Origin: a virus
Taxonomy: Duplodnaviria; Caudoviricetes
Length of the DNA stretch: 64,000 bases
Virus record (IMG/VR): IMGVR_UViG_3300044991_001466
Direction: 5' to 3' (one strand)
How positions within the stretch are numbered: position 1 is the stretch's first letter; each line of letters begins with the position of its first letter. The notes beneath the pieces are model-generated. The model did no database searches, was not told the DNA's origin, and worked only from the letters and a program-made list of their open reading frames with translations. This document shows positions 6,174 through 31,667 of this stretch, in pieces. A program made the position numbers and the translations under genes.

Positions 6174-6872
6174 TTATTCTAAAAACCCAACTAAAATACC
6201 ATCATAAATCTTTTTAAAACGTTTCATAGCTATTCTAATCTCTTTAGTTGATAATGAGGTCATTTCTCTTAAAGAGAGTAAAATGAGGTTCTTATTGAAC
6301 TTATTACCGTCACCTACTTGGAAAATTTTATCAAAATTGCTAAATATTTCAAGTAAAGCGTAACCTAATTTTTGTTCGTTTTCGTTTAAATTTTGACTTT
6401 CTACAAATTCTTCTAAATTTGACGCTAGTTTAATTATAATTGATTGATAATCAATAACATGTTCATCAATCACATATGACAAATCGGACCTATCTTCAAT
6501 ATCTGAAGATATGTCATCATAAGATACTTGTCTATTCTGTTCTTTAGTGTCTTTCTGTATTGCACCCATGAGGTAATTTTTACAGATTGTACCAAAATAG
6601 GAATAAGCTTTAGTATTTTTAGTATGGTCAAATTTATTAATTTTTGTAATTAAAAAAGACATGGTATCGGTATGAATTTCATTGAAATCCATATCTTTTC
6701 TATATAATTTATAACGTCTAATGATACTTTCTACCATTATGATTAAGGGTTCTCTTAAATATTCATTGAATATCTTGTTCTTTTCTGTTTCGTCAGTACT
6801 TTCAAGGTAATTGACTACCGCCTTTTCTTGATCCTCACCAAAGTAAATTTTTTGGGTTCTAGGTCTTGGCAT
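6174..6872 (-). CDS. gp55: gp55-like late-transcription sigma factor
   Basis: KFDHTKNTKAYSYFGTICKNYL resembles the region-2 signature of T4 gp55-type sigmas (FDPEK..NPFAYFT.I). It has an N-terminal IYF motif, and 232 aa is the typical size. Confidence 0.75.
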   Translation of the reverse strand: MPRPRTQKIYFGEDQEKAVVNYLESTDETEKNKIFNEYLREPLIIMVESIIRRYKLYRKDMDFNEIHTDTMSFLITKINKFDHTKNTKAYSYFGTICKNYLMGAIQKDTKEQNRQVSYDDISSDIEDRSDLSYVIDEHVIDYQSIIIKLASNLEEFVESQNLNENEQKLGYALLEIFSNFDKIFQVGDGNKFNKNLILLSLREMTSLSTKEIRIAMKRFKKIYDGILVGFLE

Positions 6873-11083: not shown

Positions 11084-11297
11084 TTTTTTCTTTTTTATCT
11101 AAAATCCATTTATCTAACTTCTTAACTCGTTCTTTTAAGTCATTATCTTGTGGTCTTAAACAACACTCAACAAAAACATCGGTTACTCGTTGTAATTCCT
11201 CAAATGTAACTTGAACACCAACTGTACTGAGGTATTCTAAAGCCATTTTACTTTGCGATTGACGCATTATCTGTATATCTCTGCCGTAAAAATCCAT
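11076..11297 (-). CDS. Hypothetical protein (73 aa)
   Basis: ORF in the operon, overlapping the dut start. Confidence 0.6.
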   Translation of the reverse strand: MDFYGRDIQIMRQSQSKMALEYLSTVGVQVTFEELQRVTDVFVECCLRPQDNDLKERVKKLDKWILDKKEKNG

Positions 11298-11318
11298 AGT
11301 TCAGTTGGTGTTGTTAAA

Positions 11319-11555
11319 TTACTTTGTTTTGTAATATTCAGGTGTGTTCTTGTCATCAATAATACAATCGATTTTTAATTTCTTAACATCGATAATTTGA
11401 CTTGAACGAATATCGCCCGCTAAAAATTTTGAAGCGGTGATGTTTGCCTCAGCATTTGATTCTGCTTGAACGATAATGTTTGATTTTGTTAAACGTGGGT
11501 TACCCTCTCTGTCTAATTGTTCGGATTCATATCCTACTGTTACTGTGTAATGCAT
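11319..11555 (-). CDS. Hypothetical protein (78 aa)
   Basis: ORF in the same minus-strand operon, tightly spaced. Confidence 0.6.
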   Translation of the reverse strand: MHYTVTVGYESEQLDREGNPRLTKSNIIVQAESNAEANITASKFLAGDIRSSQIIDVKKLKIDCIIDDKNTPEYYKTK

Positions 11556-11567
11556 AATTGTTTTTTT

Positions 11568-15898: not shown

Positions 15899-15910
15899 CT
15901 ATTTGGACTT

Positions 15911-15949
15911 TTATATAAATATCAAATGTTATGAAAGATATTTATATAA
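15911..15949. promoter_or_regulatory. Back-to-back pair of putative late promoters (13-bp inverted repeat)
   Basis: TTATATAAATATC (15911-15923) and GATATTTATATAA (15937-15949) lie between divergent genes. Confidence 0.65.
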
Positions 15950-26001: not shown

Positions 26002-27234
26002 ATGGGAATACCGAAAAGAAAACTTAATGTAAACCTATATCCTGAAAAAATATTAGGGGAAAGAAGACAAGAATTGTTAGAAAAAATAACTAAATCTGAC
26101 ACATATCTTCCTGAAACTATATTACATGATGATATGGATATGGGATTTTTGGAATATGTAAATAAGAATTTTAAAGTAGTATCAAATAATATTCAAATAC
26201 CAATTATTAATAAAATATTAACCATTCAAAGATGGGGTGAATTTACACAAAATTGGAGTTTTAGTAATGAGGATGGAAATATGGAACTTCCGTTTGTTGC
26301 AATTATAAGAAAGCCAGACGTTCAATATGGTACCAATCCATCAGTACAAAGAACAATACCTGATAGATATCAATTTCATTATGCTACCGTACCTACTTGG
26401 AATGGAACAACTATGGGTGCCGATATCTATAAAATCCCACAACCAATTCCGGTTGATATTTCATATGAGGTTACTATTATTTGTAATCGTTTTAGGGATT
26501 TGAATAAGTTTAATAAAAAAGTATTACAAGGGTTTCCATCAAGACAAGATTACACAAGAGTAAAAGGTCATTACATTCCGATTGTTTTAGATGGTATTGA
26601 TGATACAAGTCCGATGGAAGCATTAGATGGGCGTAGATTTTATATGCAAAATTATAAATTTACAATGTTGGGGTTCTTAATAGATAGTGAGGAGTTTGAA
26701 GTTAGTCCCGCTGTTAGTAGACTATTTATTATGAGTGAATTTACAAATGAAAACGCAAATATGAGAAAATATCAAAATAAGTCTCTTAGTTTAACTAACG
26801 TTAACTTTACGGGAAATGGAACACAAACATTATATAGTGTGGGTGAAAGTATCGGTACGTTATTTGGTGTATCAGTTAATGGAGTTTTACAAGAAAAAGG
26901 TAATGATTTTTATCACATTACATATACCCATAAAATAACATTTGTTACACCTCCACCAGCAAATGCTTTAATATTAATAACTTATTATAAGGGTAGAAAC
27001 AACGTTATATTAGATACATACGGTAAGGTTATTCAAGTTGATAAACAAGTCTTCACATATGACGGGTCTTCAATTACGTTTACCTTATCAAATCCAATTA
27101 GTAGTGTCATTACATTAGATATTAACGGATTGGTTGAAGATGAGGGATCAAGTTATACTGTTGGTGAACAATCTGTTACTTTATTAGGAACCCCTGTTGT
27201 TGGTTCTGTTATTACCGTTTCTTACTTATATTAA
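26002..27234 (+). CDS. Tail terminator (gp15-like) with two appended beta-rich repeat domains
   Basis: PIPVDISYEVTIIC..DLN resembles gp15 P.P.D..Y.L.I. The C-terminus has two F.G(N/D)G..F.L..V.(V/I)NG repeats. Confidence 0.6.
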   Translation: MGIPKRKLNVNLYPEKILGERRQELLEKITKSDTYLPETILHDDMDMGFLEYVNKNFKVVSNNIQIPIINKILTIQRWGEFTQNWSFSNEDGNMELPFVAIIRKPDVQYGTNPSVQRTIPDRYQFHYATVPTWNGTTMGADIYKIPQPIPVDISYEVTIICNRFRDLNKFNKKVLQGFPSRQDYTRVKGHYIPIVLDGIDDTSPMEALDGRRFYMQNYKFTMLGFLIDSEEFEVSPAVSRLFIMSEFTNENANMRKYQNKSLSLTNVNFTGNGTQTLYSVGESIGTLFGVSVNGVLQEKGNDFYHITYTHKITFVTPPPANALILITYYKGRNNVILDTYGKVIQVDKQVFTYDGSSITFTLSNPISSVITLDINGLVEDEGSSYTVGEQSVTLLGTPVVGSVITVSYLY

Positions 27235-27386
27235 GACTCCCCATATATGTCTTTTTTAGGTTTACATAGGTCTTCTATGAACTTTTCCAACAATTTATAA
27301 ATTTTTAATCCATTTTTTTCACAATGGGTTTTAAGTAGTTGGTGATGTTTTTCACTGATTTTGACGTTTTTTGTTTTGTTTTCCAT
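27231..27386 (-). CDS. Ribbon-helix-helix DNA-binding protein (51 aa, start MENKTK)
   Basis: KNVKISEKHHQLLKTHCEKNGLKIYKLLEKFI has the beta-strand/helix/G-turn/helix RHH pattern. Confidence 0.6.
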   Translation of the reverse strand: MENKTKNVKISEKHHQLLKTHCEKNGLKIYKLLEKFIEDLCKPKKDIYGES

Positions 27387-27502: not shown

Positions 27503-29989
27503 ATGGCAAATTCAAACAGAGTATTCGTTTCTCCAGGTGTATATACATCTGAGAAGGATCTAACATTCGTAGCGCAAAGCGTCGGAGTAACAACATTGGG
27601 TTTAGTGGGTGAAACCTTAAAGGGTCCCGCATTTGAACCTATTTTAATTGGAAACTTCGATGAATATAAAACATACTTCGGACCAACTTCACCTGAAAAA
27701 TATGGTGACGGTAACCCAAAATACGAATTAGGGTATGTTGCAAAATCATATTTACAAGAATCCAACCAATTATTCGTAACAAGAGTATTGGGATTAACAG
27801 GATATAAAGCAGGAAAAACATTCGGAATTAAAACTTTAGGTATTACGGGTAACACTTATGGAAACATTGTGGTTGCTGCGTTAAGATCAAGAGGACGTTA
27901 TTCAGGTGAAACTTTAATATATGAAGTTACAGGTAACACCTCATTTGAAATTGCTTCAGGTACAACTTTAGAATCAAATCCATTAGCCGAATTTACAATT
28001 AATGTAACGGGTGTAACTGGAGGTGCAAAATCATTCACTTGTAGTTTAGATACAACATCTCCAAAATTTATAACTAAAGTATTAGGAACTGCACCGTTTG
28101 ATAAGGCTTATGGTGATGTACCACTTTACGTACATGAAGTTTATCCAAATTTAAATTTAAACCTTTACCGCAAGGGTTCAATTAGTGGACTAAGTTTAAC
28201 TGAGGTATATAACGCTGAAGGTAATAATTTTGCTGACGGGTATAGTGCAGATGATTTATCTAAATTAGCTGCTATTTCACCAACTGTAGTTTCAGAAGTA
28301 AGAGGTGGTAAAGTTGACGAATTATTTGATGTCATTACAATTTCAGACGGGGATACCGCAAATATTGAGGTTAAAATAACGATACAAAATATTAATTTAG
28401 ATACTGGAGAATTTGATTTATTAGTTCGTGATTTTAATGACTCTGATGAAAATATGGTTGCGTTAGAGAAGTTTACAAGATGTAGTATGAATCCAGATGT
28501 TGCAGGTTATATCGCAAGAAAAATTGGAACATCTGATGGTGAATATTCATTAAATTCAAAATATATCATGTTATCAATGAGTGATAATGCGCCTGTCGAT
28601 GCATTTCCAGCAGGATTTAAAGGATTTGCAGGAGCAACAATCTCAGGGGCTACGTTAGGTAGTGTTTTATATAAAACTGAATTTTTTGATGCTGGAGATA
28701 CAATATATACAGGAGCCACTCTTTCAGGTTATACAGGATTAACAAGTAGTGGTGACAAATATAGAAAAACGTCATTAGGTTTATCTTCTGATGGTTATTA
28801 TAATTTTGATAGTGATTTATTTAAATATAAAGGTACGGGTTCTACTATGAATTATACCAATGGATTCCATTTGTCAACAAACGCATCTTCAATCACAGGA
28901 ACAACATATCAATGTACTCCATATGATTTAGAGGGTCAAAGTGGTGGAGATGGAAATAAATTAACATCTATTAACTATCGTAAATTCACATTTGCTGCTT
29001 GTGGTGGTCATGATGGTTGGGATATCTATAGACAAACAAGAACAAACACAGACGCATATGTCTTTGGAAAAAATACATATACATCAGGTAATACAACTAA
29101 TGGAGGGTTATTTGGAACAGCATTTGGTACCGCTAACTCAGATTTATACTCTTATTTAAAGGGTATTGAAACATTTGCCAATCCTGAGGCTGTTAATATT
29201 AACGTATTTGCAACTCCAGGTATCAATTTCTTTGACCACTCATCTTTAGTTACACAAGCTATTGATATGGTTGAAAATGATAGAGCGGATTCAATCTATA
29301 TTATTGGTTCTCCTAATGAATCGGCTTCAGCAAATGTTATTTCAGATTTAGAAGAACAAGGAATTGATTCTAACTATTCTGCAACATATTGGCCTTGGAT
29401 TCAAGTAAGAGACACAGATAACGCAACTCAACTATATATCCCACCAACAGGTGAGGTTGTTAGAAACATTGCGTTGACAGATAACGTTTCTTATCCTTGG
29501 TTCGCGGTGGCAGGTTATTCAAGAGGTTTGGTAAATGCAATTAAAGCAACCAAAAAATTAACTCTTGATGAAAGAGATGAATTATACAAGAACAGAATTA
29601 ACCCAATCGCAACATTCTCTGATACAGGTACTATTATTTGGGGTAACAAAACGTTACAAGTTAGAGAATCTGCTTTAGATAGAATTAACGTAAGAAGATT
29701 ACTATTGAGAGCAAGAAAGTTAATATCAGCTGTAGCTGTTAGATTGTTGTTTGAACAAAACGACGACCAAGTAAGACAAGAATTCTTAAGATTGGTAAAT
29801 CCAATTTTGGAAGCAATTAAGAAAGAGAGAGGTCTTTATGATTTCCGTGTAAGTGTATCAAATTCTCCTGAAGATATTGATGCTAACACATTGAGAGGTA
29901 AGATTTACATCAAACCAACTCGTTCTCTTGAATTTATTGATTTGGAATTCATTATTACTCCAACAGGAGCTTCATTTGAAAATATCTAA
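27503..29989 (+). CDS. gp18: Tail sheath protein
   Basis: SPGVYTSEKD N-terminus; YWPW, PPTG..WFAVAGYSRG, INPI, WGNKT, RINVRRL and IYIKPTRSLEFI motifs. Confidence 0.95.
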   Translation: MANSNRVFVSPGVYTSEKDLTFVAQSVGVTTLGLVGETLKGPAFEPILIGNFDEYKTYFGPTSPEKYGDGNPKYELGYVAKSYLQESNQLFVTRVLGLTGYKAGKTFGIKTLGITGNTYGNIVVAALRSRGRYSGETLIYEVTGNTSFEIASGTTLESNPLAEFTINVTGVTGGAKSFTCSLDTTSPKFITKVLGTAPFDKAYGDVPLYVHEVYPNLNLNLYRKGSISGLSLTEVYNAEGNNFADGYSADDLSKLAAISPTVVSEVRGGKVDELFDVITISDGDTANIEVKITIQNINLDTGEFDLLVRDFNDSDENMVALEKFTRCSMNPDVAGYIARKIGTSDGEYSLNSKYIMLSMSDNAPVDAFPAGFKGFAGATISGATLGSVLYKTEFFDAGDTIYTGATLSGYTGLTSSGDKYRKTSLGLSSDGYYNFDSDLFKYKGTGSTMNYTNGFHLSTNASSITGTTYQCTPYDLEGQSGGDGNKLTSINYRKFTFAACGGHDGWDIYRQTRTNTDAYVFGKNTYTSGNTTNGGLFGTAFGTANSDLYSYLKGIETFANPEAVNINVFATPGINFFDHSSLVTQAIDMVENDRADSIYIIGSPNESASANVISDLEEQGIDSNYSATYWPWIQVRDTDNATQLYIPPTGEVVRNIALTDNVSYPWFAVAGYSRGLVNAIKATKKLTLDERDELYKNRINPIATFSDTGTIIWGNKTLQVRESALDRINVRRLLLRARKLISAVAVRLLFEQNDDQVRQEFLRLVNPILEAIKKERGLYDFRVSVSNSPEDIDANTLRGKIYIKPTRSLEFIDLEFIITPTGASFENI

Positions 29990-30011
29990 TCTAAAAGGAG
30001 ATATAAATAAG

Positions 30012-30037
30012 AAGGGGGTCGAAAGACCTCCTTTTTT
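30012..30037 (+). terminator. Intrinsic terminator after the sheath gene
   Basis: AAGGGGGTC-GAAA-GACCTCCTT stem with GNRA loop, followed by a T tract. Confidence 0.85.
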
Positions 30038-30047
30038 GTTTGTGGAA

Positions 30048-30063
30048 TGCTCCACGTGGAACG
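30048..30063. promoter_or_regulatory. parS-like palindrome TGCTCCACGTGGAACG
   Basis: 14/16 identity to the symmetric parS variant TGTTCCACGTGGAACA; lies in a non-coding region. Confidence 0.4.
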
Positions 30064-30095
30064 TTTTACGAGAAAAATAAATGTATACTCGGCCC

Positions 30096-30133
30096 AGTAT
30101 ATACTAGTATATACTAGTATATTCTAGAACTAG
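30096..30133. repeat. Tandem palindromic 10-mers (AGTATATACT)x2 plus degenerate copies
   Basis: AGTATATACT AGTATATACT AGTATATTCT AGAACT AG; each exact unit is self-complementary. Confidence 0.85.
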
Positions 30134-30325
30134 TTATTTAAGTATTTATATTTAATAAAGAGATATAAGAGTTTATACTGGAACTAGATACTGGAGCCTG
30201 TAAAAAACTACGAAAAATAATTGACATTATCAAGTACTTTAATAAAAATAGTAAAAATAAATTATTTTCCAATATAGATATATTTATAAGAAGTATAAAA
30301 TAACAAAAAATTTAACAAATACAAA

Positions 30326-30814
30326 ATGGCAGATTTACTAATGAAAATGCCGGTTCCATATGAACCGAAAAGAACAAACCGATTTATCTTAAGATTTCCA
30401 TCTTCATTGGGGATTAATGAATGGTACGTGTTCTCAACATCTAGACCAAAAGCAAAAATAAAATCAGTAGAGATACCATTCTTGAATACTTCAACATACG
30501 TGGCGGGTAGATTTGAGTGGGAGGAAATGTCTGTAACGTTTAAAGACCCAATTGGTCCTTCTGCATCACAAGCGTTAATGGAATGGTTCCGTTTACATGC
30601 TGAATCAGTTACAGGTCGTATGGGTTATGCTGCTGGTTATAAAAAAGACATTGAACTTGAGATGTTAGACCCAACAGGTGTTGTGGTTGAAAAATGGATT
30701 TTACAAGGTACTTTCTTAACAGGATTGAACTTTGGAGATTTGGACTACTCAAGAGACGATATTGCAACTATTCAAGCTTCTTTAAGAATGGATAGATGTA
30801 TTCAAGTTTATTAA
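30326..30814 (+). CDS. gp19: Tail tube protein
   Basis: 162 aa directly after the sheath gene; EPKRTNRF, AGRFEW..VTFKD and YKKDI.L.MLDPTG..W.L.G.F motifs. Confidence 0.9.
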   Translation: MADLLMKMPVPYEPKRTNRFILRFPSSLGINEWYVFSTSRPKAKIKSVEIPFLNTSTYVAGRFEWEEMSVTFKDPIGPSASQALMEWFRLHAESVTGRMGYAAGYKKDIELEMLDPTGVVVEKWILQGTFLTGLNFGDLDYSRDDIATIQASLRMDRCIQVY

Positions 30815-30917: not shown

Positions 30918-31667
30918 ATGGAAGAATATAAAATTGACCCAACAATCGCATATGACGTTGTAGAATTACCTAGTCGAGGAATTTACTACGCCAACAACAA
31001 GAAATCACTCAAAATTTCTTATTTAACCGCTGCGGATGAAAACATATTGGCAGCACCAAATTTAATACAGACAAATCAAATTGTTACAGAACTTTTAAAA
31101 AGAAAAGTTTTAGACAAAGATATGAATGTAGATGATTTAATTGAAGAGGATAAACAAGCGATTTTAATATTTTTACGAAACACAGCATTTGGCACGGAAT
31201 ATAAGTTGACATTAACTGACCCAAAAACGGATAAGACATTTGACATTGAGGTTGATTTAAGTTCATTGGATTTTAAACCATTTGATTTGGTTCCTGATGC
31301 AAATGGGGAATATTCATATTTTATGGAAAAAAGTAAAATTGATGTTACATTTAAATTTTTAACACAAAAACAAGAATTAGAAATAAAAGAAATTCAAAAG
31401 AGTTGGAATGGTAACGGGGTTGCACCAATTATCACAAAACAACTTGAATTTATGATTAAATCAATTAAGGGTAACAGAGATATTATGAATATCAGAAACC
31501 TAATTGAAAATTTACCAATAAGAGATTCCCAAAGTTTCAGGAAATTTATCAACGATAAAAAACCTGGAATCAATTTAAACAAAAAAACAACGACCCCTTC
31601 AGGAGAAGAAATCCAATTTGAAATTGGGTTTGGGGTAGAGTTTTTTCGCCCTTTCTACGGATTATAA
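30918..31667 (+). CDS. Tail/baseplate assembly chaperone, gp26-like
   Basis: VVELPSRG.YY, YLTAADENIL and DKQAILIFLR..FG.EY pattern; ends GVEFF; lies between the tube and tape measure genes. Confidence 0.7.
   Translation: MEEYKIDPTIAYDVVELPSRGIYYANNKKSLKISYLTAADENILAAPNLIQTNQIVTELLKRKVLDKDMNVDDLIEEDKQAILIFLRNTAFGTEYKLTLTDPKTDKTFDIEVDLSSLDFKPFDLVPDANGEYSYFMEKSKIDVTFKFLTQKQELEIKEIQKSWNGNGVAPIITKQLEFMIKSIKGNRDIMNIRNLIENLPIRDSQSFRKFINDKKPGINLNKKTTTPSGEEIQFEIGFGVEFFRPFYGL

Follow-up and report, generated by a model that had tools for sequence, protein, structure and literature searches.

Organization of the Sheath-Tube Locus

The window analyzed in this study is a 64,000-nucleotide stretch of DNA from an uncultured AT-rich (~31% GC) T4-like myophage of lake water, the full genome of which is probably well over 250 kb in size. 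A close IMG/VR record (G001) is 98% identical, and there are at least 596 related contigs. A search of cultured phages for near matches found none; the closest sheath proteins, which are 31–40% identical, belong to an uncultured huge phage, Microcystis phage Mel-JY01, and Flavobacterium phage immuto.

The tail sheath gene (positions 27503–29989, plus strand; PHROG 23 tail sheath, E 3e-68) and the tail tube gene (30326–30814, plus strand; PHROG 4542 tail tube, E 2e-23) are the upstream and downstream neighbors of a spacer of 336 nt. The first-pass annotation of this DNA had described the spacer as the largest non-coding stretch in the window, and this description is borne out because the longer gap of 484 nt at 11084–11567 is filled by two small minus-strand ORFs. 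All of the sequences named in that annotation are present where it had placed them. The intrinsic terminator of the sheath gene was located at 30009–30036 on the plus strand by a terminator scan, and 9 of its 11 stem pairs show compensatory changes among 24 relatives.

A parS-like Palindrome Downstream of the Sheath Terminator

The 16-mer TGCTCCACGTGGAACG at 30048–30063 (no strand assigned) matches TGTTCCACGTGGAACA at 14 of 16 positions, with T3>C and A16>G as the two mismatches, and includes a perfect 10-bp core, TCCACGTGGA, at 30051–30060. An extra partial half-site, GTGGAA (30042–30047), was read directly from the sequence and is inverted with respect to the left arm of the 16-mer; the GTGGA-ATGC-TCCAC element described previously was likewise read at 30042–30055. 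Within the 64-kb window, TCCACGTGGA with up to one mismatch is observed once as compared with an expectation of 1.08, and the parS consensus with up to three mismatches is observed five times as compared with 3.8 expected. The 10-bp palindrome is thus no more frequent in the window than expected by chance, and the window by itself proves nothing for it; selection on the palindrome is apparent only in relatives.

Sheath-tube spacers were taken from 80 related loci with tube proteins that are 87–100% identical and comprise 59 distinct sequences, nearly all of which are 270–340 nt long; their flanks are saturated. Whether relatives keep palindromes in this gap was a check proposed in the first-pass annotation, and 44 of the 59 do so: A-TGTTCCAC-RN-GGAAC-C is found at the same place, just past the sheath terminator and 30–90 nt downstream of the sheath stop. 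The consensus of the 44 copies is TGTTCCAC-RN-GGAAC-M, and the information profile has a sharp 17-nt peak, with AT-rich flanks that carry almost none. Residues G2, T4, C6, A13, and A14 are invariant in all 44 copies, and A7, C8, and C15 are each kept in 43. The relatives match parS at 13–16 of the 16 positions; a perfect TGTTCCACGTGGAACA is present in L067, L100, and L164, and TGTTTCACGAGAAACA is present in L028 and L078. The conservation is lopsided, with a near-invariant left heptamer, GTTYCAC, and a right half that allows nearly any base at position 10 and either G or A at position 9; in this respect, the phage sites are unlike canonical parS, which has a CACGTG center. The 44 copies represent 21 variants of the 16-mer, and conservation over so many variants rules out a chance origin of the palindrome. 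Extra half-sites (GTTYCAC/GTGRAAC) are adjacent to the palindrome in L017/L020/L021, L075, and L076. Adjacent half-sites have been gained independently in several lineages, namely that of the window (GTGGAA, 30042), L017/L020/L021, and L075/L076.

The site is absent from 15 of the 59 relatives, and a 248-kb relative (G007:C1) has no such site at all; it is dispensable. In a tree based on the sheath 3′ end and tube DNA, the presence or absence of the site requires at least four to six state changes, and for this reason the site appears to be old and to have been lost several times. The basal clade that comprises L037, L041, L054, L060, and L081 lacks the parS-like site. In L037, L041, and L081, TTGGTCC/GGACCA(A) units occupy the sheath-tube spacer instead, and L054 resembles L041; these repeats look as if another binding protein were served at that position. 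In each phage record (38–212 kb), the spacer copy is the only intergenic parS-like match, and the other matches fall inside ORFs, including fiber repeats and a 664-aa ORF. The further check of whether parS-like sites occur elsewhere in the genome therefore gave a negative answer for intergenic DNA in these records.

Comparison with Chromosomal parS and the Probable Host

The published parS consensus is TGTTNCACGTGAAACA, and a TGTTCCACGTGGAAC(A/G) variant occurs in Pseudomonas and Myxococcus (PMC7022226). The CC/GG variant TGTTCCACGTGGAACA, known in these two genera, was also observed in Bacteroidota. Chromosomal parS is degenerate at positions 5 and 12 (PMC7022226), and these are the main variable positions in the phage sites as well. 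The side half-sites of the phages correspond to the half-parS heptamers GTTCCAC and GTTTCAC, which are bound by several ParBs (PMC7022226). ParB sites are told apart from Noc sites by G2 and A7 of the 16-mer (bioRxiv 10.1101/724823). The left half of the phage sites has the parS-type bases at both of these specificity positions (G2 in 44/44 copies and A7 in 43/44), whereas at the mirror positions in the right half C15 is present in 43/44 copies but T10 in 28/44.

Among 81 sampled Bacteroidota genomes, exact TGTTYCACGTGRAACA is found in 60, as compared with 0 for the reversed control, usually as one to three clustered copies, and all four Y5/R12 combinations occur. In three Bacteroidota genomes, a CACATG-centered copy lies ~1.9 kb from a canonical parS, at the position of the second site of a pair; because of this pairing, the A9 variant that is common in the phage family appears to be a natural parS variant.

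Relatives of the phage PhoH gene were found in two Bacteroidota MAGs, one from Chitinophagaceae and one from Flavobacteriaceae. Both MAGs encode ParB (ParB_N) and carry two TGTTCCACGTGGAACA sites each, although the Chitinophagaceae MAG has AGTT in its second site. The sites are upstream of gidA and after ybeY in one MAG and flank the ends of gidA in the other. In the Flavobacteriaceae MAG, the PhoH match is on the 248-kb phage contig, and a parAB operon is on another contig. This phage contig (L208 or G007:C1; CBFHJJ010000001.1, 248,233 bp) is a near-complete-looking relative in a public "Flavobacteriaceae" MAG and is 85, 81, and 55% identical to the window phage in the tube, PhoH, and a ribbon-helix-helix ORF, respectively. 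It is phage DNA binned as bacterial and lends weak support to a Bacteroidota host. A cognate ParB and a matching parS are present in Bacteroidota, which we infer from the MAGs with phage relatives to be the probable host phylum.

ParB_N (PF02195) was not found in G002–G005 (76–212 kb) or in G007:C1 (248 kb), and ParA/CbiA (PF01656) was not found in G001–G004 or G007:C1, all of which are partial genomes; CheckV completeness is 12–63% for the IMG/VR records. The same searches did recover the host parAB operon in the Flavobacteriaceae MAG. Linked genes for ParA and a centromere-binding protein, as expected for a self-encoded partition system of the ParABS or ParFGH type, were not found in the sampled partial genomes. 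From the partial genomes sampled, the phage seems to provide a parS-like site without a ParB of its own, and a ParB-like gene could lie elsewhere.

CYAGTAT Arrays and Avoidance of CTAG

The spacer also contains two arrays of CYAGTAT/ATACTRG units, neither of which was assigned to a strand. The first (30094–30134) comprises CCAGTAT, three 10-bp AGTATAWWCT units, and CTAGAACTAG; the second (30175–30194) comprises ATACTGG, CTGGAACTAG, and ATACTGG and forms a conserved block in the alignment of 24 relatives. The three 10-bp units are in tandem, with AGTATATACT at 30096–30105 and again at 30106–30115 and AGTATATTCT at 30116–30125. The GTATAC reported earlier is at 30083–30088, five CTAG sequences are within 30104–30187, and the two copies of ATACTGG start at 30175 and 30188. 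In the 59 spacers, the most over-represented words are CCCAGTAT, CTAGTAT, ATACTGG, CTGGAAC, and GAACTAG. The units occur in both orientations and in two clusters with a TATTTAT box between them, and their number differs between relatives. L003–L005 have one 10-bp AGTATATACT unit fewer, although the sheath and tube flanks are 98–99% identical, a difference that is typical of replication slippage in a tandem repeat; the three 10-bp units of the window are a recent, lineage-specific expansion of a conserved array. The first-pass annotation had viewed the tandem units as helically phased palindromes. The units are present as described, but helical phasing is not a conserved property because L003–L005 have one unit fewer and other relatives space their units by 6–9 nt.

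CTAG is observed 26 times in the window as compared with 183 times expected from base composition, and five of the 26 copies are within 84 nt of the spacer; this cluster is not due to chance. In the 248-kb relative, the corresponding numbers are 2 observed and 766 expected, and its spacer keeps the units in the form CCAGTAT/ACTGG, without CTAG. The units therefore appear to be maintained despite pressure against CTAG, because they are present in a CTAG-poor window and this relative retains CTAG-free versions of them. The extreme avoidance suggests that restriction or repair in the hosts acts strongly against CTAG. A CTAG-rich array in CTAG-poor genomes points to a second candidate DNA-binding factor.

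The layout of the arrays is similar to that of operators for ribbon-helix-helix proteins, such as the omega heptads, the ParG ACTC boxes, and the Arc/Mnt operators, which share with them 7-nt units in direct and inverted orientations near promoters and a variable copy number. A further likeness is a conserved ribbon-helix-helix gene 2.9 kb upstream of the arrays. This ORF of 51 aa (27231–27386, minus strand) is divergent from the sheath gene and was masked in ORF lists by a spurious 133-aa frame. It has a PHROG Arc-like repressor match (2e-4) together with weaker Pfam matches to RepB-RCR_reg and ParG, and the AF2 model of its product, with an extended N-terminal segment followed by two helices, fits a ribbon-helix-helix fold. 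The ORF is syntenic in 11 relatives at 54–100% identity, three of which have neither the palindrome nor the CTAG array, and its identity is 74–82% in relatives without arrays; this persistence is the difference from the known systems. CYAGTAT-type units were sought upstream of the ORF and none were found there. The ORF was rejected as the factor for either the arrays or the palindrome because it is kept in relatives that have neither element.

Promoters, Other Conserved Boxes, and Transcripts

The T4 late promoter consensus is TATAAATA, the reverse complement of which is TATTTAT[AT]. The late-promoter core of the phage family is TATTTAT[AT], and 20 of its 38 copies in the window are in the intergenic 3% of the sequence. 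Correctly oriented copies are located within 60 nt upstream of 14 ORFs; examples of cores are at 2110, 15914, 18160, 22666, 27458, 30281, 30872, 33710, 45839, and 56513. The spacing from core to start is 37–38 nt for the sheath and tube genes and for the genes at 30918 and 45885. In several other genes, the core is just 3–15 nt before the start codon, and these may have leaderless mRNAs or mis-set starts. The core of the tube gene promoter, TATTTATA (30281–30288, plus strand), is 37 nt before the start and is invariant in relatives. A second TATTTATA, at 30143–30150 on the plus strand between the two arrays, is a predicted internal late-promoter-like box with the core that is shared with 14 genes, and the presence of GTATTTAT in 38 of the 59 relatives supports it. 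Back-to-back TATTTATA boxes are found in a 32-nt divergent gap at 15899–15930, which is where the genes change strand and the GC skew turns.

The spacer also includes a pair of conserved boxes, GTAAAAAACTACGAAAAAT and TTGACATTATCAAG (30200–30234, plus strand; inverted TTGA-N5-TCAA). They form near-invariant columns in 24 relatives, and each box occurs only once in the window. The same description applies to the boxes written as AAAAACTACGAAAAAT and TTGACAnnnnTCAAG. Within 30200–30234, TTGACA-17-AAAAAT scores 10/12 as a σ70-like site. A sigma-like ORF at 6174–6872 has only a weak Sigma70_r2 match. The FNR/CRP-type consensus is TTGAT-N4-ATCAA, and an assignment of TTGACATTATCAAG to this type was rejected in view of its TTGA-N5-TCAA arms with odd spacing. 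The right arm of the palindrome was also considered as the −35 element (GGAAC) of an ECF sigma factor, a reading that was rejected because it leaves the better conserved left arm unexplained and no conserved −10 element follows.

Metatranscriptome contigs from four RNA runs cover the sheath and tube genes and leave 30023–30302 uncovered, which is uninformative because the spacer is divergent and a 90% identity threshold applied. Single contigs from two studies start with an Illumina adapter near 30322–30326; the join is 4 nt before the tube start codon in one contig and 12 nt before it in that of a relative. These adapter-joined ends may correspond to the 5′ end of an abundant RNA, past the point at which transcription from the late promoter is expected to start. 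An RNA element in the spacer is unlikely because RNAalifold, applied to 24 spacers, predicts no stem besides that of the sheath terminator apart from 3 bp of pairing in the palindrome, and the arrays are left unpaired. A permissive Rfam search of the spacer gave only sub-threshold noise.

Interpretation of the Palindrome

The palindrome is best read as an orphan parS of the host type, which would recruit the ParB of the host. Our confidence in this reading is kept near one half by the asymmetric conservation and the repeated losses. Chromosomal parS of ParABS systems and the phage element share the 16-bp palindrome (14/16 in the window and 16/16 in some relatives), the two positions at which variation is tolerated (5 and 12), and, in the left half, the parS-type bases at the positions that distinguish ParB from Noc. 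In contrast, chromosomal parS is near oriC and clustered, whereas the phage site is single, is carried on a lytic-type genome with no linked parA or parB, has a right half that is relaxed at positions 9–10, and has been lost in some lineages. The first-pass annotation had proposed a phage origin or a packaging or organizing site, possibly one that recruits host ParB. What stands of that proposal is a conserved site of parS type, with recruitment of host ParB as its best reading, and the probable host phylum has a matching parS; the origin reading is not supported.

The main rival to the parS reading is an operator function: a dimeric regulator encoded by the phage, other than ParB, would bind the palindrome and control sheath read-through or tube expression, and the likeness to parS would be convergent. 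We judge this unlikely, although it deserves to be taken seriously. It would account for the position of the palindrome in a regulatory spacer with other conserved boxes and promoters, for the asymmetric conservation of the two halves, and for the different repeat motif at the same place in the basal clade. However, convergence is an improbable source of a 14–16/16 match to the parS of the host phylum that also has, in its left half, the parS-type base at each specificity position; the palindrome is single-copy, whereas multiple sites would be expected for a global regulator. The only nearby DNA-binding gene is the ribbon-helix-helix ORF, which is kept in palindrome-less relatives and is thus not tied to the palindrome or the arrays.

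There is a small chance that the spacer is a replication origin in which the CYAGTAT/CTAG units would serve as iterons and the AT-rich center as the unwinding element, and the parS-like site would mark the locus as parS does beside bacterial oriC, with the internal promoter priming replication as at T4 oriF and oriG. Short repeats of variable copy number flank an AT-rich center with a promoter-like box, CTAG is retained in the spacer of a genome that purges it, and T4 oriE, which has iterons, is located among baseplate genes. Although repeats and an AT-rich center are present, the center is undistinctive in a genome that is AT-rich throughout, and the adjacent genes encode the sheath and tube rather than an initiator. 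The cumulative GC skew turns only once in the window, at ~16 kb, and in the 248-kb relative it turns at ~55–60 kb, as compared with 72 kb for the spacer; both turns are at gene-strand switches. The inflection proposed as a check on the origin claim is thus not seen at the gap in either sequence, although skew is a weak test in a phage of this kind, where it follows transcription and the gene strand.

It is highly improbable that the repeat clusters are a pac site bound by the small terminase subunit. Their two clusters of 7-nt units around an AT-rich stretch of ~45 nt resemble phage P1 pac, in which four and three short repeats surround the cut site, but the spacer is far from any terminase gene in the window and T4-type phages are not known to use a defined pac site. 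By our estimate, the five of 80 related contigs that start inside the gap are about the number expected by chance, which also led us to reject contig ends as genome termini. With respect to a packaging or organizing role more generally, the evidence neither supports nor excludes it. The least probable reading is that the elements function through secondary structure, either as a DNA cruciform or as an RNA hairpin in a leader or 3′ end, or that the palindrome is due to chance; it is already largely refuted. The sequences are self-complementary, and two DNA hairpins have energies of −4.4 and −6.2 kcal/mol (z-scores near −2), but these energies are modest, the tandem layout that might extrude as a cruciform is not conserved, the RNAalifold stems are short or absent, the CCCAGTAT/ATACTGGG changes are not compensatory, the palindrome sits past the terminator and ahead of the promoters, and its conservation across 21 variants rules out chance.

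Proposed Role and Precedents

The 336-nt spacer as a whole appears to be a conserved cis-acting region of separable modules. The first module would be the single orphan host-type parS directly after the sheath terminator, a palindrome for the nucleation of ParB. During infection, a dimer of host ParB would bind this site, close into a CTP-dependent clamp, and slide onto the flanking phage DNA as it does on the chromosome; the outcome would be that host partition or condensin machinery is placed on the phage genome or that ParB is drawn from the host origin. The second module would be the two CYAGTAT/ATACTRG arrays, around the late-promoter-like box, for a candidate sequence-specific protein, and the third would be the two conserved boxes followed by the tube gene's own late promoter.

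The first-pass annotation had noted that recruitment of host ParB would be unusual for a lytic T4-like phage, which is fair, but it is not unprecedented, because the virulent Bacillus phage phi29 has five parS sites for host Spo0J and no ParB of its own, and its genome is trapped in the forespore (PMC2731898). Phi29 is the closest precedent for a phage-borne host-type parS. The likeness is one of principle only, namely a host ParB site on a phage without its own ParB; phi29 has five sites and a role in spore entrapment, whereas a single site is predicted here in a giant T4-like phage of Bacteroidota. Members of the Bacteroidota, the probable host phylum, are not known to sporulate. The spore-entrapment role is inapplicable to them, and therefore the benefit for a Bacteroidota phage must differ. 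Phages P1 and P7 (parABS) and N15 (sop) likewise have a centromere-like site on the genome but encode their own ParA and ParB and use plasmid-specific centromeres, whereas the site in the window phage is of the chromosomal type and neither ParA nor ParB was found on the sampled partial phage DNA.

The exact TGTTCCACGTGGAACA 16-mer is present in at least 120 unrelated IMG/VR contigs (L087–L206) with GC contents of 23–70%. Controls gave 3 and 66 copies, so the intergenic fraction is the informative measure: 28 of the 120 matches listed (23%) are outside open frames, as compared with 2 of 66 (3%) for the center-swapped control. Several exact copies (L088, L090, L126, and L138) directly follow terminator-like T-runs. 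ParB_N was sought in five IMG/VR records with an exact parS, one of them 351 kb, and none was found. Orphan host-type parS sites in phages may be commoner than the searched literature suggests.

Bacteria rely mainly on ParB-parS for chromosome partition and condensin loading, and spore entrapment of phi29 was the only use of it by a lytic phage that we found in the literature searched. We propose tentatively, as somewhat short of an even prospect, that giant T4-like phages of freshwater Bacteroidota, a widespread family, recruit the host ParB CTP-clamp by means of a single orphan parS. If this is true, the purpose might be to load host condensin on, or to position, a very large replicating genome, or to deplete the host origin of ParB by titration; the most speculative possibility is a sliding clamp next to the strongest late promoters, analogous to gp45 of T4. 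The logic of the search, for a host parS without a phage parB, is applicable across viral metagenomes. If the proposal is correct, very large phages would engage the chromosome-organizing machinery of the host in ordinary lytic growth.
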